Source of the DNA: an uncultured Planctomycetales bacterium
Lineage (GTDB): Bacteria; Omnitrophota; Gorgyraeia; Gygaellales; Profunditerraquicolaceae
Direction of reading: 5' to 3'
DNA length: 64,000 nucleotides
Assembly: GCA_964603585.1 (NCBI GenBank)
Contig: CAZRVK010000002.1
Coordinates: forward strand, 243,561 to 307,560
The translations under genes were made by a program, and so were the position numbers. This document shows, piece after piece, positions 1-63,097 of the stretch. Below the pieces are notes generated by a model. It saw only the letters and a program-made list of their open reading frames with translations. It was not told where the DNA came from and ran no database searches. Position 1 is the first letter of the stretch; the number at the start of each line of letters is the position of its first letter.

Positions 1-888
1 TCTTCCGGCACAGTCACCGGTTCGCGTTCAATTTTTTTCTTTAGTATTGCGATCCTGGTTTCAAAATCCGGAGGCTGTATATCTGTGCTTAACCCCCAGC
101 TGAATCTCGATACCAACCTATCCTGCAGGTTGGAGATTTCACGTGGCGGCCGGTCGGAACAAAGGATAATTTGTTTATGGGCATCATGCAGGGCGTTGAA
201 TGTGTGGAAGAATTCTTCTTGGGTTGATTCTTTGCCGGCAATAAAATGGATATCGTCGATCACTAAAACATCCATGTTCCGGTATCTTTGACGGAATTTG
301 GATGTGGAGTGGTGCTGGATGGCCTCGATTAACTCGGTAGTGAATCTTTCCGAAGGCATATAACAGATTTTGACCGGCTGATTGTGGCTCTTAATCTTAT
401 GGCAGATCGCCTGCATTAAATGGGTTTTCCCTAAACCCGCGGCGCCATAGATAAATAAAGGATTGTATGTTTTAGCCGGCGACTCCGCAACCGCCAGTGA
501 ATACGCATGTGCATGCCGGTTCGATGCACCAACAACAAAGTTTTCAAAAGTATACCGGGGGTTCAGATTAGAGCAAAAATTGGTTTCGGAAGCTGGCCCA
601 GGAAGATGCACGGAGGTATTTTCTATCGAAACGTTCTTATCCTGATCCGCGGACCCCAGGGTTACAATAACCGCCTTTTTAGTTAAATTTCTGACGGTTT
701 CCTGAATAAGCTGTTTATAATGTTTTTCTACCCAGTCTCTGAAGAAAGCATCCGGCGCTTCCACGATCAAGCTGGTTTCATTCTCCAGCGTAGGCTTTAA
801 AGGCAGAATCCAGGTCTCAAAGGGTGTTTTGCCGATATTTTCTTTTATCTGGGCACTGACTTTTTCCCATAAGGTATGTATGTCCACA
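1..888 (-). CDS. dnaA: chromosomal replication initiator DnaA (partial; C-terminus lies beyond window start)
   Basis: Minus-strand translation (absent from ORF track, no stop in window) reads VDIHTLWEKVSAQIKENIGKTPFETWILPL...YNPLFIYGAAGLGKTHLMQAICH...MDVLVIDDIHFIAGKESTQEEFFHTFNAL, matching the DnaA N-terminal domain, Walker A and AAA+ sensor region. Probable GTG start near 888. Confidence 0.85.
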
Positions 889-34363: not shown

Positions 34364-34766
34364 TGCCCTGTCGTCTAATCGGTAGGACTTCAGATTCTGC
34401 CGTGAACCAAACAAACCACTTCGTTGTTGGTTCACGGCAGCCATGAACCGAACGAGCAGGCGAAAAAGGCAAAGCGAGTTCTGGTTCATGGCTGGACTAC
34501 CAAGCAAGATGTATTTCACATACATTTTATGGAGTAAGCAGAGTAAGAAGTTTTATATTGGATTTACAGCGGACCTGATAAGAAGAGTTGATGAACATAA
34601 GAGAGGATGTGTATATTCTACTCAACGGGTGATTAATCCGGAACTTGTTTTTTACGAAGCGTTTCTTTCGGAAAGCGATGCGAGAAGGCGCGAAGGATAT
34701 TTTAAGACAAGCAAGGGAAAGAAGGCGTTGAGAATAATGTTACGGGATACCCTATTTGAATAATTT
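34364..34766 (+). repeat. tandem repeat unit 2 (identical copy)
   Basis: Same as unit 1; directly abuts position 1 of the intact tRNA-Gln. Confidence 0.85.
34509..34763 (+). CDS. GIY-YIG nuclease-family protein, copy 2 (identical)
   Basis: Identical protein to copy 1. Confidence 0.7.
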   Translation: MYFTYILWSKQSKKFYIGFTADLIRRVDEHKRGCVYSTQRVINPELVFYEAFLSESDARRREGYFKTSKGKKALRIMLRDTLFE

Positions 34767-36497
34767 TGCCCTGTCGTCTAATCGGTAGGACTTCAGATTC
34801 TGGATCTGACTATCATGGTTCGAGTCCATGCGGGGCAGCCATTGTTGACAACTATCCGAAACTCCGGATAGTGATGCAGTGGGAACAAGCGCCTTACAGT
34901 CTTCTGTAGGGCGCTTTTCCTTTGTAGAGGCTATTTCGCTAGGGAGGATGCCTTCAAGCGGCTCTTCGATATACATATTGATTACCAGCCTGTCGCTATA
35001 GACGTAAATGTCCTTGATCAGGGCATGTATAAGGCTTTTCTGGGCTTCCGGAGGGGCGTCTTCAAGGTGCTGTATGGCAAAGTTCATGCTGCGGTATACG
35101 AGCTCGCCGGAACAGGCGTTTATGCTGGCAACTCTCTTTTGCGCCTGCAGCTTGTCTATTTCGTCTTCCAGTTTTGCAATCTCCATTTCCAACTCATTCA
35201 TTTTGTCTTTATAAGTGGAGCCTTTGGTGACTGTGTTGCCCATGGCTAATTCCAGCAGTTTATTGGCTTGGAAGCGGAAGCCGTTTAGCTTTGTCTCTCT
35301 TTCTTTTAAGTCGGTCTCTATCTTTTCAAGCTTTGCCTGCGACTCAAGCATGGCGTCTCCCAGGGCCTTTATGATAATGCCCTTGTCCTCAGATGCCCGC
35401 CTAAAATAGTCGATTATAGCTTTGTCAAAAGTAGTTGCGGAGATGCGTGTTGCTTTGCATCCCAGAGCCTGCTTGGAGCGGCTGCACTCATAATAAAAAA
35501 ACTTTCTTCTGTCTCTACCGCCTGAAAAATTGCAGACCATATGGCTTCCGCAGTCGCCGCATCGGAGAATACCGGCGAGGAGGTATTCATAGAATCTTTC
35601 TTTCTGCACAAAGTTGTGGCCGGGAAGCTTGGCGCTCAATATTTTGTTGGCCCGCTCCCAGAGCTTCTCATCGACAATCGCCGGGTGATTGCCTTTGTGG
35701 TATTCTCCGCTGTATTGAATATAGCCTTTGTAAAAAGGATTTTTTAATATCCTTGAAATAACCTGCCTGCGCCATTCCTTGCCGTTTAGAGTTTTTAGCC
35801 CGCGCCTGTGAAGCTCAAGGCCTACCTGCGTAAGCGACCGGTTATCCGCGGCCATCTCCCAGATGATTTTAAGATGCGTAGTTATTTTTTCATCAGGAAC
35901 AATTTTATGCGGCTGGCGGCCGTTAGGAAGCGGCTCTCCGTCTGGTATAAGCTTATATCCATAAGGCAGCATCCCGCCGACCCATTTGCCCTGGCGCACT
36001 CTGGCAATAGCGGATGCTTTCACGCGCTCGCCGGTGAGCTCCCGCTCAAAGGCTGACAAAATCCCAAGTATGCCAATTACTACTCTACCTATGGCGGTTG
36101 AGCTGTCCAAGTTTTCTCTTACCGAGACGAAATCGATTTCCTTTTCTCTGAATAGATCAATAAGCCAGTAGAGGTCCCGGGTATTGCGGGTCAAGCGGTC
36201 AAGGCGGAAGAAGATTATTCCGTCAAATGGGGCGGTTTCTCTACGCACGCGGTCGATAATCATCTGGATGCCGGGCCGGTTGAGATCCTTGCCGGAATAT
36301 CCGTCATCGTCTATTCGGCCTTTTTTGCCTATCTTGGCAAGGTCATATCCAAAAGCGTCCAGCAGATTCTTGCAGTGATAGGCCTGGGAATCCAGGGTGG
36401 TAAAATCTCCCTGGGCCTGGTCATCAGTAGAGCAGCGGGTATAGATTACATAGCGTTTTTTGTTATTTGCATTATTTGTTTTGGCATTCATAATCAT
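34752..36497 (-). CDS. large serine recombinase (phage integrase)
   Basis: N-terminal resolvase catalytic domain (YVIYTRCSTDDQ), recombinase domain, zinc ribbon (CGDCGSHMVC...YYECSRS), coiled coil. Likely start MIMNAK at 36497; the track ORF extends to 36620. C-terminal codons overlap tRNA-Gln antisense. Confidence 0.8.
   Translation of the reverse strand: MIMNAKTNNANNKKRYVIYTRCSTDDQAQGDFTTLDSQAYHCKNLLDAFGYDLAKIGKKGRIDDDGYSGKDLNRPGIQMIIDRVRRETAPFDGIIFFRLDRLTRNTRDLYWLIDLFREKEIDFVSVRENLDSSTAIGRVVIGILGILSAFERELTGERVKASAIARVRQGKWVGGMLPYGYKLIPDGEPLPNGRQPHKIVPDEKITTHLKIIWEMAADNRSLTQVGLELHRRGLKTLNGKEWRRQVISRILKNPFYKGYIQYSGEYHKGNHPAIVDEKLWERANKILSAKLPGHNFVQKERFYEYLLAGILRCGDCGSHMVCNFSGGRDRRKFFYYECSRSKQALGCKATRISATTFDKAIIDYFRRASEDKGIIIKALGDAMLESQAKLEKIETDLKERETKLNGFRFQANKLLELAMGNTVTKGSTYKDKMNELEMEIAKLEDEIDKLQAQKRVASINACSGELVYRSMNFAIQHLEDAPPEAQKSLIHALIKDIYVYSDRLVINMYIEEPLEGILPSEIASTKEKRPTEDCKALVPTASLSGVSDSCQQWLPRMDSNHDSQIQNLKSYRLDDRAKLFK
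34767..34841 (+). tRNA. tRNA-Gln(CTG)
   Basis: U1-A72 acceptor TGCCCTG/CGGGGCA, D arm GTCT-AATCGGTAG-GGAC, anticodon stem TCAGA/TCTGA with loop TTCTGGA, T arm CATGG-TTCGAGT-CCATG, then GCCA. Confidence 0.8.
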
Positions 36498-37424: not shown

Positions 37425-37997
37425 ATGAGTTCCAATTACGGAGGCTTATTTGAGAGCTGGGAGATCGCAGTTGCCAAGAAGATTGTCAGTGATTACCGAA
37501 AAGAGCACGCATACCTGGCGCGGGAGGGATTAGATGATTTATTGCAGGAATGTCTCATACGCTGGCTTGAGGTCCGCGACCGCTATGATCCTGCACGCGG
37601 CGCTTCAGAAAAGACCTATATGGCAAAGGTTATCGCAAGCGTGCTTCGCAAGCTTATTGAGAAAGCAAATACTGATAAGCGCAAGGCGATTTATGAAAGC
37701 TCGTCTTTGGAAGAACCGCTTAATGATGATGAAGATGAGCTTACCCTAAAAGGCAAGCTCGCAAAAGACGAAGATATTCCTCCGCAAACTAAGGCAGAAT
37801 TAAAAATAGATATTTCCCGGGTATTGCAAAAACTTACGCCGGAAGAGCAAAAGCTGTGCAAGCTTTTAGGCGAAGAGGGATTAAGCATAAATGAGGCCTG
37901 CAAATATTTCAATAAGCATAGAAGCGTTGTGTATCGGGATGTGCTTCGCATCAGGAAGCTTTTTGAGGAAGAGGGGCTCAAAGATTATTTGAAATGA
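37425..37997 (+). CDS. sigma-70 family (ECF-like) RNA polymerase sigma factor, phage-encoded
   Basis: Region-2-like DLLQECLIRWLEVRDRYDP and region-4 HTH LTPEEQKLCKLLGEEGLSINEACKYFNKHRSVVYRDVLRIRKL. Confidence 0.55.
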   Translation: MSSNYGGLFESWEIAVAKKIVSDYRKEHAYLAREGLDDLLQECLIRWLEVRDRYDPARGASEKTYMAKVIASVLRKLIEKANTDKRKAIYESSSLEEPLNDDEDELTLKGKLAKDEDIPPQTKAELKIDISRVLQKLTPEEQKLCKLLGEEGLSINEACKYFNKHRSVVYRDVLRIRKLFEEEGLKDYLK

Positions 37998-38059: not shown

Positions 38060-38335
38060 ATGACTGACGTATGCAAGTTTAAATTTCGCGAAAAAGTAGG
38101 CAAGAAAATCATTGAGAAAGAGATTGCCCGCGCTATTGAGACTGCTGAATACGCCTTTGGCCAGGCCAAGGTAAGACTTCATGCAGCATATCTGGCTACC
38201 CACGACAAAGTGGTCATTGATGCCTCGAGCGAAGTCGGCGAATATATCGCCCAGATATTTATTGGGATAATGACCCGCAAGCTCGGCGAGGATAAATTCA
38301 CTGTGGAAAGGATAAAAAGGAGCGAAGAGCTATGA
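38060..38335 (+). CDS. hypothetical phage protein
   Basis: GGAGGCAGGAAAG RBS then ATG; no recognised domain. Confidence 0.4.
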   Translation: MTDVCKFKFREKVGKKIIEKEIARAIETAEYAFGQAKVRLHAAYLATHDKVVIDASSEVGEYIAQIFIGIMTRKLGEDKFTVERIKRSEEL

Positions 38336-38448
38336 AAGTTACAAAAGGCTTAAAGAAAGTTTACAAAGGGCTTAGCTGGTATAACCGGCAGAAGCTTATT
38401 GAAGCAAACCGTCCTTGCGGGAAAAAGAAAAGAAAGCCCAAAAAGTAA
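38332..38448 (+). CDS. small basic hypothetical protein (38 aa)
   Basis: MKVTKGLKKVYKGLSWYNRQKLIEANRPCGKKKRKPKK; ATG overlaps upstream stop (ATGA coupling); below ORF-track size cutoff. Confidence 0.25.
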   Translation: MKVTKGLKKVYKGLSWYNRQKLIEANRPCGKKKRKPKK

Positions 38449-38463
38449 TAAGCAGGTTTTTCC

Positions 38464-38907
38464 ATGGGCAATGAAAAGATTGATATCAGGGATCTGCGTG
38501 ATGGCAAATTCCTTTGGATAGATAAGGCAGCATTAAGGCTTATCAGCGAAAGCGCTGGTACGATGGGTGTCGCTGTTTATTCCTGGCTTTGTTATTACGC
38601 TAATTTTAAGGCACAGGACTGCTTTCCGTCTATTACTACACTTGCGTATCATTGCGGAGTATCCCGACGCACAATTATGCGCGCTATTAAACAGCTTGAG
38701 CAGTTGAGATCTATTTCTATTGAAAGAAAGAAGGGCAAGCCGAATATTTATAAGCTGCTTAACATGCCCGGGCCGAGAAGTTATCCACAGCCAAGTAGTG
38801 ACACTGATGTCACCGGTGACAGGGCTGTCACTGGAGTGGTGACACCTGTGTCACTAGAAGTAGTGACGCCCTTGTCACCCGAACAAGAGATATTAAACAA
38901 GAGATAA
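38464..38907 (+). CDS. HTH_36-type replication-initiator-like protein
   Basis: Winged HTH (SITTLAYHCGVSRRTIMRAIKQLEQL) resembling DnaD/phage replisome-organiser N-termini; 3' end encodes the VTGDRAVTGVVTPVSLEVVTP iteron array. Confidence 0.5.
   Translation: MGNEKIDIRDLRDGKFLWIDKAALRLISESAGTMGVAVYSWLCYYANFKAQDCFPSITTLAYHCGVSRRTIMRAIKQLEQLRSISIERKKGKPNIYKLLNMPGPRSYPQPSSDTDVTGDRAVTGVVTPVSLEVVTPLSPEQEILNKR
38798..38878. repeat. iteron array: four 16-bp palindromes GTGACA-N4-TGTCAC (candidate phage replication origin)
   Basis: gtgacaCTGAtgtcac (38798-38813), gtgacaGGGCtgtcac (38816-38831), gtgacaCCTGtgtcac (38839-38854), gtgacgCCCTtgtcac (38863-38878). Followed by a GC-rich block (about 38985-39030) and an AT-rich block (about 39060-39165). 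Confidence 0.6.
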
Positions 38908-39171
38908 CTAACAAAAGATAGTAGTAAAGGCTGTGAATTTTGTGAATAACTGTGATTAGTTCTTAAAAGAAAGTCATGGGTCCTTCCATGGGCGGTTTGG
39001 GCGCGGGTCGGGCGAGGCGCGGGGAGGGAGTGATACAAATTTGAAAAAGGGATGTCGTGGTCATTTTAGGGTATTTTTGGGGAGTTTTGGCAGAGGAAGT
39101 TTAGCAAACGATAAGTAATTTAACTTATTACAGATTATTAAGTTATAACAAAAAACGAAAGGAGTTTTTGC

Positions 39172-40512
39172 ATGCCGAAGATTAACGTAAAACCGGACAT
39201 CCGCGACATCGCCATGTCCGAGATAAAGCCTGCGCCTTATAACCCAAGAGAGATTTCTGAGCAGGCGCTGATGGGCCTAAGGCACTCTCTGGAAAAGTTC
39301 GGGCTGGTGGATTTATTAGTGGTCAATAAGCGCACGATGCATATCATTTCAGGACATCAGCGCTATAAGGTCCTGCAGGCTGACGGCGCAAAGACTGTAA
39401 CTGCGATTATGGTTGACTTAGATGAGGCTTCGGAAATGGCCATGAATGTGACTCTAAACTCCCAGCAGATAGTAGGAGCCTGGACAGCTGCCCTAATTCC
39501 TATTTTAGAAAAGCTGCGCAAGGATATGCCGGAGGATTATTTGTCTTTAAGGCTTAAGGAGCTGCGGGAAGAGGTTTCTAAACTTGAGATGGAAAGCTTA
39601 GGAGCTGGCAAAACCCTGCCGGATGATCTGCCTGAACCGCCTCCTGAAACAATTACTAAAAAAGGCGACCTTTGGATCTTGGGCGAGCATAGGCTTTTGT
39701 GCGGAGATTCAACCAAGGAAGAGGATGTTTCAAGATTAATGGACGGTAAAACTGCCAAGCTCTTTGCGACTGATCCGCCGTATCTAGTGGACTACACCGG
39801 AACCGGCAGGCCGAAAGGCGACCACGGCCAAGGAGGCAAAGACTGGTCCGGGGTTTATCATGAGATTGACATTGAGGATGCAGAAAGCTTTTTAAGGGAT
39901 TTCCTAACCCGCGGCTTAAAGGTCATTGAAGCCAACACGCCGATTTATCTTTGGCACGCTTCAGCACGTATAGTTCTAATCAGAAAAATCTGCGACGAAT
40001 TAAATATCCTGGTGCATCAGCAGGTGATCTGGGTCAAGCCCTGCGCAGTCCTATCTTTTGCCTATTATCCCTGGAGGCATGAGCCGTGTTTACTATGCTG
40101 GCAGAAAGGCCATAAGCCGAATTACCGGCCTCTTGATAAGGCAATAGGCACGGTCTGGACAATAGATTTCCTAAGAACAGGAGATCCTTCAAATCCCGAA
40201 TACCACTCGGATGTCTGGGAGCTGGACTGGGAAGGCAAAAAAAGAAACACCGGGCTTTATCATCCCACAGTCAAGCCTACTGAAGTTTTTGCTATCCCAA
40301 TGCGCGTGCATACTTCAGTGGGTGATATTTGCTTTGAGCCATTTTCAGGATCAGGTTCTCAAATTATCGCAGCTGAACGCTTAAACCGTAGGTGCTTTGC
40401 TATGGAGATTGAGCCGGTGTTTGTTGACGTAGCCATACAAAGATGGACAGATTTTAGCGGCAAGGAAGCGGTCCGGGAAAGCGACGGTAAAACTTGGAGC
40501 GAACTTAAATGA
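39172..40512 (+). CDS. ParB-like nuclease domain / DNA methyltransferase fusion (beta-class N6A/N4C MTase)
   Basis: N-terminal ParBc motif (IISGHQRYKV); MTase motif IV DPPY (KLFATDPPYLVDY) precedes motif I (CFEPFSGSGSQ). Confidence 0.75.
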   Translation: MPKINVKPDIRDIAMSEIKPAPYNPREISEQALMGLRHSLEKFGLVDLLVVNKRTMHIISGHQRYKVLQADGAKTVTAIMVDLDEASEMAMNVTLNSQQIVGAWTAALIPILEKLRKDMPEDYLSLRLKELREEVSKLEMESLGAGKTLPDDLPEPPPETITKKGDLWILGEHRLLCGDSTKEEDVSRLMDGKTAKLFATDPPYLVDYTGTGRPKGDHGQGGKDWSGVYHEIDIEDAESFLRDFLTRGLKVIEANTPIYLWHASARIVLIRKICDELNILVHQQVIWVKPCAVLSFAYYPWRHEPCLLCWQKGHKPNYRPLDKAIGTVWTIDFLRTGDPSNPEYHSDVWELDWEGKKRNTGLYHPTVKPTEVFAIPMRVHTSVGDICFEPFSGSGSQIIAAERLNRRCFAMEIEPVFVDVAIQRWTDFSGKEAVRESDGKTWSELK

Positions 40513-59664: not shown

Positions 59665-60879
59665 ATGGCGGTATTTGAATTGGCCAGGACAAATATAACA
59701 GGCAGTCTTCCGGAGCAGTGCCGGGATGTAATTAAGAAATACAAATCAGACGGCATGTTTGATATCTGCTCGATTACCAGCGGCAGGCAGGACTATACCA
59801 CAGTCTATTTTTTGATGACCCAGGACTGCAATTTAAACTGCGCATACTGCTATCAGCCGAAGGAATTCCGCAGCAAAGAAGCAGTGATTACTAAACAAAT
59901 TATTGACGATACCATGACTTGGGCTCTAAAGACATTTGATGAGGCTAAGATTAAATTCAGTATCTTTGGCGGCGAGCCGTTTCTAAATACCACGATGATT
60001 AAATATCTCTGTGGTACTTACTGCATGTACCGCTATGTGGTTACTACTAACGGCCTTGTGCTGCTAAAGGACGCTGCCTTGCGCGAATGGGTCTTAAAAC
60101 ATAAATATCATCTGAATTTAAGCGTGAGCATTACCGCGCTTCGCCAGGTCCTTGGCCAAAGATATTTAGATGAGGCAGGGCCGGTGCTGGATCTGATAAA
60201 AGCTAACGGCGGAGATGCGCATTATGTGATTGACGATCCTGACCGCCCGGGCATTTATGAAGAGATTGTCCGACTCTATGAATACGGCATTCCTGTGGTA
60301 AGGGTTTCCTCAGCCAGGCATTGGGATCTGATCAAAGAGAAGAATGAGGCATACAAGTCATTATTCAAAAGAATAGCAGACTACATTTATTTTACCGGAG
60401 AGCCTAAGTTTGGAAGGAGCCAGTGGGATATTGCCTTAAAGAATAACCTTTATAGAAAACTCAAAGGCGTGCCTTTAAAGCAGGTACCGCCCACGTTCTG
60501 CGGTTGCGGTTATTTGTATCTGGCGGTTAATCATAAAGGCGAGATTTATCCCTGCGACTTCTTTGCCAATTTCCCGGAGTTTAAGATCGGCGATATCTAC
60601 TCAGGATTTAACGAGACAGCTTATTTCTTCAAGAAGATGGGCGACTGGATAGATGAGCTTTATGAGGACTGCCGGAACTGCACGGTATGCGAAGGCTGCG
60701 ATATCCGGCTCTGCCCGCGGGCAATGTGCCTGGCAGAAAATTATATCGTAAACGGCAGCCCTTTAAAGCCGGCAGCAAACCACTGCTGGGCGAATAAGGC
60801 TGAGTACGCCAACTTTGAATACATTGCTAAGAAGGCAATTGCTCTGGGCATCGATGAGCTTTATTACAGGGGAAAATGA
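59665..60879 (+). CDS. radical SAM / SPASM-domain protein 1
   Basis: CNLNCAYC (CX3CX2C) at about 59827; C-terminal CGCGYLYLAVNHKGEIYPCD and CRNCTVCEGCDIRLCPRAMC auxiliary-cluster motifs. Confidence 0.75.
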   Translation: MAVFELARTNITGSLPEQCRDVIKKYKSDGMFDICSITSGRQDYTTVYFLMTQDCNLNCAYCYQPKEFRSKEAVITKQIIDDTMTWALKTFDEAKIKFSIFGGEPFLNTTMIKYLCGTYCMYRYVVTTNGLVLLKDAALREWVLKHKYHLNLSVSITALRQVLGQRYLDEAGPVLDLIKANGGDAHYVIDDPDRPGIYEEIVRLYEYGIPVVRVSSARHWDLIKEKNEAYKSLFKRIADYIYFTGEPKFGRSQWDIALKNNLYRKLKGVPLKQVPPTFCGCGYLYLAVNHKGEIYPCDFFANFPEFKIGDIYSGFNETAYFFKKMGDWIDELYEDCRNCTVCEGCDIRLCPRAMCLAENYIVNGSPLKPAANHCWANKAEYANFEYIAKKAIALGIDELYYRGK

Positions 60880-61955
60880 AGATACCGTTTTATAAAACAG
60901 TTTACCTTTATCTTACACATGCCTGCAATTCAGGGTGCAGCTTCTGCTACCGCCGGGGATTATTTACCCGAAACAAACCCGAAAGCCTTGGCCCCCGGTT
61001 TATGAGCGAGGAGACAGCTTTCAGGATCCTGGAGTTTGTATTCTCAGAGCTTAAGCTGGATCCTAAATTTGCCGTCTACTTCTGGGGAGGGGAGCCGTTA
61101 TTAAACTTTACGGTGATAAAAGCTGTGGTTGAAAAACTTCCGCAGTTTTTATACCACACCAACACTAACGGCGCGCCCATAAATCAGGGTATGTATGACT
61201 GGCTGAGCAGGCACAAGAATTTAAGCTTTACCTGGTCCCTGGGCAATGCCTATGAAAAATACGGAAGCTTAAAAGCAAAAGTTTATGCAGAGCCCTGGGG
61301 CTTAAAGCTGGTAAAAGAAAACCCGCAGCATAATGTCAACTTCATGGTCACGCAGTACGGCAGGCTGGCTGAGGATTTTGATTTTTTAATTAATAACGTG
61401 ACCCGCAATGTCACCATAGACCTGGCTACAAGGTTTGAGCATAAAGAGGAGGATCTGGAAGAGTTTGCTGAGCAGTATCTTAAGCTGCTTTTGAAATACA
61501 GAGATGATAAAGAGCTGTATCGGGAAATTAATCCGGCAATACACTCCAACCTTTATTTTAAGGAGTTCGGGTTTAAGGCGCAGGTAGAGGATTTTCATTA
61601 CTGCCGGTCTGGCTTAGAAAGGATTTTTATTGATACCCAGGGCGGTATCTGGCAGTGCGACAACATGTATATCTGCCAGCATAATAAATTAGGGGATATC
61701 GAGAAAGGCATTGATTATTCAAAGCTTGACCTTGCCTGGGAGATCGACGCCAACAGGGAAAAGTATCTTGGGCAGTACTGCCGGGATTGCGAGCTTTACC
61801 GCTTGTGCCCGCGTAATAAATGCTTAGGTCTAAACCTGGAATGGATGGGGGATATGTTTAAGCCGGAGCCGTCATTCTGTAAGATGTGCAAAGTCTTATT
61901 CAAAATAACCAAACGCTACATTGAGCTTGAAAAGGAGGCGAGATTATGCAGCTGA
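60876..61955 (+). CDS. radical SAM / SPASM-domain protein 2
   Basis: CNSGCSFC at about 60924; C-terminal CRDCELYRLCPRNKC and FCKMC. Confidence 0.75.
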   Translation: MKIPFYKTVYLYLTHACNSGCSFCYRRGLFTRNKPESLGPRFMSEETAFRILEFVFSELKLDPKFAVYFWGGEPLLNFTVIKAVVEKLPQFLYHTNTNGAPINQGMYDWLSRHKNLSFTWSLGNAYEKYGSLKAKVYAEPWGLKLVKENPQHNVNFMVTQYGRLAEDFDFLINNVTRNVTIDLATRFEHKEEDLEEFAEQYLKLLLKYRDDKELYREINPAIHSNLYFKEFGFKAQVEDFHYCRSGLERIFIDTQGGIWQCDNMYICQHNKLGDIEKGIDYSKLDLAWEIDANREKYLGQYCRDCELYRLCPRNKCLGLNLEWMGDMFKPEPSFCKMCKVLFKITKRYIELEKEARLCS

Positions 61956-63097
61956 AGGAAAACGAAATCAAAAGCATCGATTTATTCATTACCGAGCAGT
62001 GCAACATGAAATGTGACTACTGCTTTCATAATCAAACTGATGCGGTGTTGTCAGTTGAGCAGGGCAGGAAGATCCTGGAGCGAATGAAGGCATTAAGCCC
62101 GGGTAATCTGCAGATTACCTTTTTTGGCGGCGAGCCACTGTTGTATCCGCAGACCGTATTGCAGCTGGCTGAATACGCCAGAACGCTTTGGCAGCCCGAC
62201 AAAGAAGGAAGGCATACATCGACATTTTCTATTTCAACGAACGGCATGTTCTTTGATGAGGACGTCTTTAAGAAATTTGCCGAGCTTGGCATGGCCATTC
62301 AGGTCAGCTGCGACGGAGATAAAATTACCCAGGAAGAATACCGGCACGGAGACCACGCGCTTATCATTGAAAATATGAAGAAGATTTTAAAGCTAAAGCC
62401 GGATATGAGCGTGCGCATGACTTTCACACCTAAGACAGTAGGCAGGCTGGCTATTAATATCCAGTATCTTCATGAGCTTGGCGTTGCCAAGATTACACAC
62501 CATGCGGTGATGGAAGAGGACTGGACAGAAGAAGCAGTCCAGCAGTACCAGTATCAATTAGCTCAGGTTTATCATTACCGCAGGTACTGCAAAAGGCAGG
62601 ATATCCCTCTTGAGATCGCTTTCATTGATAAGCCCCTCAAAGTCCTTAACGATGAAATCCCTGCAGAGAAGGAATACTGCCAGGCAGGCAAAAGCTACAT
62701 TGCCGTATTAGACAACGGAGATGTTTACCCCTGCCACCGTGCAGCAAGCGCCAGGCTCTTTAAGCTGGGAAGTATCTTTGACGAGATTCCTTTTATCAGG
62801 GGAATCTTTTTAAATATAGACAAGGAATACACCGGCTGCTGGAAAAACTGCAGGCACTCCAGAACCTGCCACAGCTGCATTATTACGCACTTTAAGGTCA
62901 ACCAGGAATTAAACGCGCCTTTAGCAAAATACTGCAAGCTCTGCGCTGTGGAAAACAATCAGGCATTAGGATATCTGCCGGTTGAGTTAGCTGACCGCAG
63001 GGAGCGGATGCTTTATAAAATAGGCAATGTCCTGGTGGATGTTGCCAGGCAGAATGAGGAAATCTTAAGACTGCTCAAGATAAAAGGAGGGGTTTAA
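61946..63097 (+). CDS. radical SAM / SPASM-domain protein 3
   Basis: CNMKCDYC at about 62000; C-terminal CQAGKSYIAVLDNGDVYPCH and CWKNCRHSRTCHSC. Confidence 0.75.
   Translation: MQLKENEIKSIDLFITEQCNMKCDYCFHNQTDAVLSVEQGRKILERMKALSPGNLQITFFGGEPLLYPQTVLQLAEYARTLWQPDKEGRHTSTFSISTNGMFFDEDVFKKFAELGMAIQVSCDGDKITQEEYRHGDHALIIENMKKILKLKPDMSVRMTFTPKTVGRLAINIQYLHELGVAKITHHAVMEEDWTEEAVQQYQYQLAQVYHYRRYCKRQDIPLEIAFIDKPLKVLNDEIPAEKEYCQAGKSYIAVLDNGDVYPCHRAASARLFKLGSIFDEIPFIRGIFLNIDKEYTGCWKNCRHSRTCHSCIITHFKVNQELNAPLAKYCKLCAVENNQALGYLPVELADRRERMLYKIGNVLVDVARQNEEILRLLKIKGGV

Follow-up and report, generated by a model that had tools for sequence, protein, structure and literature searches.

Replication origins that lie inside the gene for their own initiator are textbook cases in the phages λ and SPP1, and the basic architecture considered here is not new. 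Our subject is a prophage in a 64,000-nucleotide stretch of DNA from an uncultured Omnitrophota bacterium (contig CAZRVK010000002.1; the whole stretch is called the window below), in which four palindromes lie within the 3′ end of a gene for a winged-helix protein of the Pfam family HTH_36. We consider these palindromes to be the putative initiator-binding core of a prophage replication origin located inside the initiator gene, and we put the probability of this reading at roughly 0.75.

Several described systems are close enough for comparison. In oriλ, four dyad-symmetric initiator sites lie inside the linker of gene O and adjoin an A+T-rich opening region (PMC5043065). The oriL of SPP1 lies inside gene 38, which encodes the origin-binding protein G38P, and combines repeats with an AT-rich unwinding element (PMC6316719). 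In iteron plasmid origins, DnaA bound at its boxes helps to recruit the DnaB-DnaC complex (PMC5043065, PMC4980987). The basal unwinding system is defined by a DnaA box with at most 2 mismatches, optionally followed by a tandem second box with at most 4 mismatches, a spacer of up to 16 bp (mode, 13 bp), and at least three trios with a central A, of the 3′-GAT-5′ type (PMC8287927).

A preliminary description of the window, made from its letters alone, had proposed an origin within the initiator gene as in λ O and oriλ. That reading passed every comparative test that we ran, and it is upheld here with corrections.

The palindrome array and its gene

The gene and its palindromes are as follows, with positions counted from the first base of the window.

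38464 to 38907, plus strand: HTH_36 winged-helix gene, short form, encoding a putative origin-binding initiator of 147 amino acids (aa) (Pfam HTH_36, E = 1e-13)
38798 to 38813: palindrome 1, GTGACACTGATGTCAC (GTGACA-CTGA-TGTCAC), putative initiator-dimer site
38816 to 38831: palindrome 2, GTGACAGGGCTGTCAC (GTGACA-GGGC-TGTCAC)
38839 to 38854: palindrome 3, GTGACACCTGTGTCAC (GTGACA-CCTG-TGTCAC)
38863 to 38878: palindrome 4, GTGACGCCCTTGTCAC (GTGACG-CCCT-TGTCAC), one mismatch

The coordinates, sequences, and 16-bp length given for the four palindromes in the preliminary description are exact, as are the gaps of 2, 7, and 8 bp between them (18, 23, and 24 bp from start to start), and the array does lie in the 3′ end of the HTH_36 open reading frame (ORF). 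Matches to GTGACA-N4-TGTCAC with at most one mismatch number four in the 64-kb window, all of them at 38798-38878, compared with a chance expectation of 0.02 from shuffled sequences, none of which gave four. The array spans codons 112 to 139, in the last third of the ORF and directly 3′ of the winged-helix domain, and encodes the peptide ...DVTGDRAVTGVVTPVSLEVVTPLSP... Palindromes 1 and 2 are read in a different codon phase from palindromes 3 and 4.

On the 3′ side, an A-rich tract (38880-38970) comes first, followed by a G-rich block (38978-39030) and a second AT-rich tract (39090-39165). The preliminary description had named a GC-rich block and then an AT-rich tract; both are present, but the first A-rich tract comes before them. 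An Rfam scan of 38300-39300 on both strands (E ≤ 1) returned no match, so a structured RNA is not supported there. A scan for promoters and terminators at the array gave nothing above chance, and no T-runs occur 3′ of the palindromes.

Of the traits of HTH_36/DnaD-like phage replication organizers, the encoded protein has the N-terminal winged helix resembling HTH_36 and DnaD_N but not the C-terminal DnaB_2 domain. PHROG families of replication initiators, O-like proteins, and DnaD-like proteins match it with E values of 3e-11 to 1e-9 (about 1e-10 for the O-like families), and these matches are confined to the winged-helix part. Pfam Phage_rep_O had no match in the protein at E ≤ 0.01, so it is not placed in the λ O family.

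Conservation of the palindromes in related prophages

We compared the locus with 73 homologous proteins and with 46 loci, 25 on viral contigs and 21 on genome contigs; entropies were calculated from 38 unique sequences. Close protein relatives are from Candidatus Omnitrophota, with the complete genome of Ca. Velamenicoccus archaeovorus among the sources. Wherever a locus is long enough for its neighbors to be seen, the gene order is int, sigma, HTH_36, ParB-methylase, TerS, and TerL. The array is kept in its 18/23/24-bp register in nearly all 46 loci, down to about 57% protein identity. The repeats had been expected in relatives with a conserved initiator, and essentially all such relatives have them. 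The palindromes stay constant while the sigma factor, a 96-aa protein, and TerS fall to 25 to 40% identity between relatives.

Conservation is concentrated in the half-sites. At palindrome 1, 11 of 12 half-site positions show no variation, 37 of the 38 unique sequences agree at the remaining one, and spacer entropy is 0.9 to 1.8 bits; at palindrome 2, some clades have TGGCAC as the right half-site. Mean entropy is 0.25 bits over the 48 half-site positions, 1.25 bits over the 16 spacer positions, and 0.83 bits in the linkers between sites. Within half-sites, entropy at third codon positions is 0.27 bits, versus 1.24 bits at those of the strongly conserved winged-helix domain (Mann-Whitney P = 3e-7). 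Among short forms of the gene, to which the window copy belongs, the winged-helix domain has a ratio of nonsynonymous to synonymous substitution rates (dN/dS) of 0.05 with dS near 1.0, and the palindrome-coding segment has a dS of 0.25 and a dN/dS of 0.61. The N4 spacers and the encoded amino acids vary, and the half-sites are almost invariant.

At one locus (L044) the ORF ends 5′ of the array, yet three palindromes persist, and one palindrome has changed symmetrically on both arms, to GTGACT...AGTCAC. AlphaFold predicts the palindrome-encoded segment to be disordered, with a predicted local distance difference test score (pLDDT) below 50 at residues 103 to 155 of a long homologue. Because half-sites and synonymous positions are conserved, because the palindromes are read in two codon phases and persist at L044, and because the peptide is predicted to be disordered, these comparisons indicate that selection acts on the DNA, as dyad-symmetric putative protein-binding sites, and not on the peptide.

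The recognition region of the winged-helix domain is invariant, with few helix variants across loci. SRRT goes with the half-site GTGACA at most loci, SGRT with CTGACA (L022 and L025), and AKRT with GTGACT (L044). This covariation, which comprises few independent events, is suggestive of the HTH_36 protein as the cognate binder of the palindromes.

DnaA boxes, A-rich repeats, and DnaA-trio-like triplets

The palindromes belong to a larger conserved unit of 169 bp (38781-38949), which reaches from inside the 3′ part of the initiator gene to beyond its stop codon. Its other parts are as follows.

38781 to 38789, plus strand: upstream DnaA box TTATCCACA, a perfect consensus 8 bp 5′ of palindrome 1, encoding SYPQ
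38882 to 38920, plus strand: three tandem 14-bp A-rich repeats, AACAAGAGATA, AACAAGAGATA, and AACAAAAGATA, a putative unwinding element
38919 to 38927, plus strand: DnaA-trio-like TAG TAG TAA of the 3′-GAT-5′ type (TTA CTA CTA on the opposite strand)
38931 to 38928, minus strand: 4-bp spacer GCCT between the tandem DnaA boxes and the trios
38949 to 38932, minus strand: tandem DnaA boxes, TTATTCACA (38949-38941) fused to AAATTCACA (38940-38932)

The candidate origin thus contains host-type DnaA boxes TTATCCACA (38781-38789) and TTATTCACA (38949-38941, minus strand), which converge and are both positionally conserved; the preliminary description does not mention these boxes, which bound the unit. 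Boxes occur at fixed positions in about 38 of 44 loci, and in the 413 kb of DNA flanking them only 2 perfect boxes were found, versus 3.2 expected. One group of loci has the upstream box at −17/−19 from palindrome 1, coding for SYPQ; another has an inverted box, TGTGGATAA, at −14 instead, coding for PVDK. The downstream box is kept at +137 to +147 from palindrome 1 in long and short forms of the gene alike, coding for LWI(T/S) in the long forms and sitting in noncoding DNA in the short ones. The same DnaA box is thus kept in either orientation, with different amino acids encoded, and has outlasted the domain to whose coding sequence it belonged.

Between array and downstream boxes, Tandem Repeats Finder reports 2.8 copies of a repeat with a period of 14. 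The stop codon of the HTH_36 gene (38905-38907) falls within the second A-rich repeat. The core AACAA-A---A is invariant in the 38 sequences, third codon positions included, and the repeats are also kept untranslated, in the 139-aa forms. In the roughly 25-kb prophage only two 40-mers are less stable than the one at 38890 (99.9th percentile), and the region 38880-38950, with 70 to 78% A+T, is in the 99th percentile of instability. The distal AT-rich tract named in the preliminary description is not part of the origin, and the likely unwinding region is the set of 14-bp A-rich repeats directly after palindrome 4. A likeness of these repeats (TATCTCTTGTT on the other strand) to the E. coli oriC 13-mers (GATCTnTTnTTTT) was dropped because in E. 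coli the strand relation to the nearest DnaA box is reversed.

Read on the minus strand, the right side of the unit consists of TTATTCACA, AAATTCACA, GCCT, and TTA CTA CTA, followed by T-rich DNA. The first box has 1 mismatch and fits TTATNCACA, the second has 3 mismatches, and the box-to-trio spacer is 13 bp, counted from the first box. In its box, tandem box, spacer, and trios, this module falls within the limits of the basal unwinding system (PMC8287927). In the other short forms the corresponding series begins with TTAT(T/C)CACA and continues through a degenerate second box and (A/G)CCT to CTA CTA CTA, with box-to-trio spacers of 12 to 13 bp, and CTACTACTA or a close variant was present, 12 to 13 bp from the DnaA box, in 14 of 14 short forms examined. 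The pattern TTATNCACA-N10-16-YTACTA occurs once in the window (0.00 expected) and in 15 of the loci, all of them short forms; the trio module was looked for beside the downstream DnaA box of the long forms and was present in none. As deduced from a footprinting description, the strand arrangement of the module would be that of Helicobacter pylori and Bacillus subtilis (PMC8235120). We found no report of a DnaA-box/trio module in a phage origin in the literature searched; such modules have so far been described for chromosomal origins.

Truncated and full-length initiators

Most family members have 250 to 275 aa and consist of a winged helix, a disordered linker encoded by the palindromes and A-rich repeats, and a helical C-terminal domain, whose first conserved residues, LWI(T/S), are those encoded by the second DnaA box. 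Members of the window clade, with 139 to 148 aa, have the winged-helix domain without the C-terminal domain. Compared with the close long forms L032 and L008, a repeat spacing of 14 instead of 15 brings a stop codon into frame, and a deletion starts just 3′ of the second DnaA box. The C-terminal domain is deleted and not relocated: a tblastn search with eight long-form C-terminal domains against the whole window and all short-form loci yielded only noise. The entire DNA unit is kept in the short forms, where it is now partly noncoding, and is nearly invariant while other synonymous sites are saturated. As the short-form winged-helix domain is under strong purifying selection, the truncated protein is in use. 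The DnaA-trio module occurs beside phage initiator sites only in the lineage whose initiator lacks the C-terminal domain.

Short- and long-form prophages share a genome in two cases. The loci L026 and L038 lie about 48 kb apart in Ca. Velamenicoccus archaeovorus LiM (NZ_CP019384.1), and L029 and L039 occur in one metagenome-assembled genome (JAMWCB01). The palindromes of the coresident short- and long-form prophages are nearly identical, so that one prophage might complement the other in trans, or their origins might show cross-talk and incompatibility.

A short initiator-like protein also occurs in Bacillus phage 268TH002 (L049, 2498-2922), which encodes a 111-aa HTH_36-only protein with two copies of CTATACTCATTTA downstream. 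This is the same 13- to 14-mer that is tandemly repeated after the palindromes in the initiator gene of a Parageobacillus phage (L047, 1408-1435). Judging from this pair, truncated initiators that keep their origin repeats may not be confined to the phages of Omnitrophota.

Alternative functions of the palindromes

The palindromes might instead be an operator array through which the short HTH_36 protein autoregulates or blocks read-through from early to late genes. The window protein is a DNA-binding domain only, 16-bp palindromes 2 to 8 bp apart resemble phage operators such as OR and OL of λ, and the array lies just 5′ of the late genes. However, the sites lie in coding sequence for the interdomain linker of all relatives, with no promoter-like site above chance, and most family members have a second domain. 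The array is also bracketed by conserved DnaA boxes, A-rich tandem repeats, and DnaA-trio-like triplets, and the same layout is found in a Parageobacillus phage protein with a DnaB_2 domain and an adjacent helicase loader. We consider an operator array unlikely.

A second alternative concerns packaging, with the palindromes as a packaging signal, a cos accessory element, or TerS recognition sites. They lie about 100 to 300 bp 5′ of the G-rich block, which precedes the genes for the ParB-methylase, TerS, and λ-type (GpA) TerL. The block (GGGTCCTTCC...GGGTCGGGCGAGGCGCGGGG) is always directly 5′ of these three genes, with TerL composed of GpA_ATPase and GpA_nuclease domains, and its core, GGGTCGGGCGAGGCG, is identical in 36 of 40 listed loci and differs by 1 to 3 bases in the other four. 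It is followed by a CAGTGAT-like sequence, an A-run, and tandem 7-mers, GATGTCGTGGTC (39051-39062), which are constant within TerS clusters and different between them. The block is probably a cos site, judged from this pattern, with a conserved cleavage region and putative TerS-specific binding repeats; a possible resemblance to the cohesive ends of P2 and λ is a lead only.

Four loci separate the two elements. In L028 (1355-1964), L009 (4919-5629), L042 (6022-6620), and L025 (4214-5028), inserted ORFs of 350 to 700 bp part the HTH_36 gene from the block, which stays with the terminase genes. By these insertions, the junction between initiator gene and G-rich block is a hotspot for gene insertion, and the GC-rich block, which the preliminary description had taken into the origin, is a separate element. 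Moreover, the palindromes are constant across TerS types that are only about 40% identical, and it is the repeats after the G-rich block that covary with TerS. A role in packaging is thus very improbable.

Slimmer still is the chance that the palindromes are parS sites for the ParB_N-methyltransferase or the attP of the serine integrase. The gene with the ParB_N domain does lie 265 bp downstream, and 16-bp palindromes are of parS-like size, but no helix-turn-helix (HTH) or centromere-binding domain was detected in the ParB_N-methylase fusion, and partition is not required for an element that is integrated. Integration would have split an attP site, which would also adjoin int; int is 2 kb away, and the array is intact in all integrated copies. 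The weakest alternative, that the repetitive look of the peptide (VTGD, VTGV, VTPVS, VTPLS) reflects selection for a VT/SP-rich tail with the DNA palindromes as a by-product, is hardly credible given constrained synonymous sites with a dN/dS of 0.61, half-sites fixed in two codon phases while spacers and amino acids vary, and palindromes that persist untranslated in L044 and otherwise encode a segment predicted to be disordered.

Proposed mechanism

Several points weigh against a replication origin within the initiator gene. The support for it is entirely computational. The site spacing of 18, 23, and 24 bp gives no clean helical repeat, and recognizable DnaA boxes are missing from the most divergent relatives, about 6 of the 40 unique ones. 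The right end of the prophage is undefined, and replication genes may lie beyond the window. The window protein has no C-terminal domain, and, by analogy with λ O, such an N-terminal fragment would bind the origin without initiating replication. The long-form C-terminal domain matched no known replication domain family, DnaB_2 included; an hhalign comparison with the Parageobacillus DnaB_2 region gave a probability of 2.9%. Finally, given how closely the short forms are related, a single evolutionary event may account for the association of truncation with trios.

If the palindromes are the core of an origin, replication could proceed as follows. Upon induction, an early transcript would yield the 147-aa winged-helix protein, dimers of which would occupy the four dyad-symmetric sites, and host DnaA would bind the flanking, convergent boxes. 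From the tandem boxes on the right, DnaA would spread over the three TAG/TAA trios into the A-rich 14-mers, which would open, and the host helicase would then be loaded. In the long forms, the C-terminal helical domain presumably serves as the effector by recruiting replication proteins of the host. The window clade would have lost this domain by a frameshift and a deletion ending just past the right-hand DnaA box. In such short forms, where tandem boxes and trios take up that position instead, DnaA probably carries out both opening and helicase recruitment, with the truncated protein only marking and shaping the origin. For the last step, there is the alternative that a full-length initiator of a coresident related prophage acts in trans, the sites being the same.

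This scheme suggests a course of evolution that we offer tentatively, with the odds somewhat against it. The phage lineage would have built a chromosomal DnaA module (tandem boxes, trios, and an AT-rich element) into its origin, after which its initiator would have shed the effector domain. Opening of the origin and helicase recruitment would fall to host DnaA, leaving the winged-helix protein of about 140 aa only as a licensing or architectural factor specific to the origin.

Prophage and host surroundings

The left part of the prophage comprises tRNA-Gln (34767-34841), a serine integrase, a Rho_N-domain protein, a 71-aa ORF, and a sigma-70-like factor. These are followed by a 96-aa ORF, a 38-aa ORF, the HTH_36 gene, the ParB_N-methyltransferase, and TerS, and on the right by λ-type TerL (GpA_ATPase and GpA_nuclease), portal, major head, tail tape measure, and J-like tail proteins. 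No gene for a helicase, loader, primase, or polymerase was recognized in the roughly 25-kb prophage part of the window. Across the 46 loci the synteny is the same: the HTH_36 gene has the sigma-like factor, small ORFs, and ParB_N-methylase as neighbors and no helicase or loader.

The sigma-70-like factor (37425-37997; Sigma70_r2; PHROG RNA polymerase sigma factor) lies in a very short early region. It is 32 to 93% identical between relatives, far below the conservation of the initiator winged-helix domain, and is likely an activator of the late operon. On the minus strand, the serine integrase ORF runs at its 3′ end (region 34752-34841) straight through the antisense strand of tRNA-Gln (34767-34841, plus strand). 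The integration site seems to be in or at tRNA-Gln, with the integrase C terminus partly encoded by the tRNA gene. Genes for tRNAs are not known as common targets of serine integrases. No att-like direct repeats (exact 14-mers) were found between the integrase end and 57 to 64 kb, as expected for a serine integrase, and for this reason the right boundary of the prophage is undefined. Three consecutive radical-SAM genes (59665-63097) follow the tail genes and three ORFs of unknown function and may be phage cargo or host genes.

The window begins inside host dnaA (3-887, minus strand; Bac_DnaA, 1e-71), and its left end has the neighborhood of the host origin, with dnaA, rpmH (1311-1445), yidC, parA, and parB. 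Nowhere in the window are DnaA-box-like 9-mers clustered more densely than in the dnaA-rpmH spacer (880-1026), which includes ATATCCACA twice, TTATGCACA, and others, of the type (T/A)TATCCACA. As dnaA and its box cluster are both in the window, the host has DnaA and TTATCCACA-type boxes, and as dnaA stands at the window start, the prophage is about 34 kb from the chromosomal origin region.

Implications

The analysis gives a sequence-level origin prediction for a widespread prophage family of the Omnitrophota, an uncultivated phylum for which there are no genetic tools. A defined 170-bp origin with a small initiator would be a starting point for a replicon. The locus also shows unusually clearly, in a natural case, how constraint on the DNA can prevail over constraint on coding. 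If confirmed, the combination of DnaA module and truncated initiator would show how a mobile element shifts from its own initiator to that of its host, a shift that can be tested experimentally. It would then be a hybrid of a phage origin and oriC, with a natural initiator reduced to its DNA-binding domain.

Comparison with known systems

The layout of winged helix, palindromes, AT-rich tandem repeats, and second domain recurs in distant family members, as it is seen in the Parageobacillus and Salinibacter homologues. Parageobacillus phage JGon-2020a (L047) is the best match among sequenced phages, with an N-terminal domain 35% identical to ours. Its homologue is a 309-aa HTH_36+DnaB_2 protein encoded between RecT and a DnaC/IstB-like loader, as is standard for a replication module. 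As in our locus, four palindromic repeats 21 to 22 bp apart (GGTTCTCACAGAACC and variants) come directly after the winged helix; two direct repeats of 14 bp and a stretch rich in A come next. The DnaB_2 C-terminal domain, the RecT and loader flanks, and the repeat sequences themselves set that locus apart from ours. Reading its positions 1260-1500 by eye, with no scan for boxes, we saw no DnaA box. The Salinibacter phage homologue has an inverted repeat followed by AACAAAGAGAGA twice. This recurring layout follows the same principle as oriλ within gene O and SPP1 oriL within gene 38.

Like oriλ, our locus has four dyad sites in the initiator's own gene, between N- and C-terminal domains (without the latter in the window), an A+T-rich region directly beside the sites, and transcription passing through the origin. 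The prophage also shares a GpA-type TerL, portal, and J-like tail protein with λ. Unlike in λ, the protein is of the HTH_36 family and not Phage_rep_O, there is no gene for a P-like helicase loader, and the window protein has no C-terminal domain; the candidate origin also has DnaA boxes and DnaA-trio-like triplets built in, which are not known as parts of oriλ. SPP1 oriL is similar in that the origin is within the gene for the origin-binding protein and combines repeats with an AT-rich element. SPP1 differs in using direct repeats and in encoding the loader gp39 and the helicase gp40, neither of whose genes was found in the prophage.

With P1 oriR, R6K γ, RK2 oriV, and pSC101, the locus shares sites for its own winged-helix initiator together with host DnaA boxes and an AT-rich element, and as in R6K γ and P1, DnaA sites bound the origin. 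It differs in having palindromes with 18/23/24-bp spacing, where plasmid iterons are direct repeats that keep helical phase and bind monomers, and the window protein is not of the Rep_3 or RepA type.

The candidate DnaA module resembles the oriC of B. subtilis and H. pylori in having a better-matching upstream box fused to a degenerate second one, a 4-bp spacer, and 13 bp to the trios, and in having at least three 3′-GAT-5′ trios followed by AT-rich DNA in the same orientation. It differs from oriC in lying in a prophage, beside phage initiator sites and 34 kb from host dnaA, and in having only three trios. On these comparisons, the locus is most likely a λ-type origin inside the initiator gene. 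It belongs to a new phage family and combines a truncated initiator with an unusual DnaA-box/trio module.

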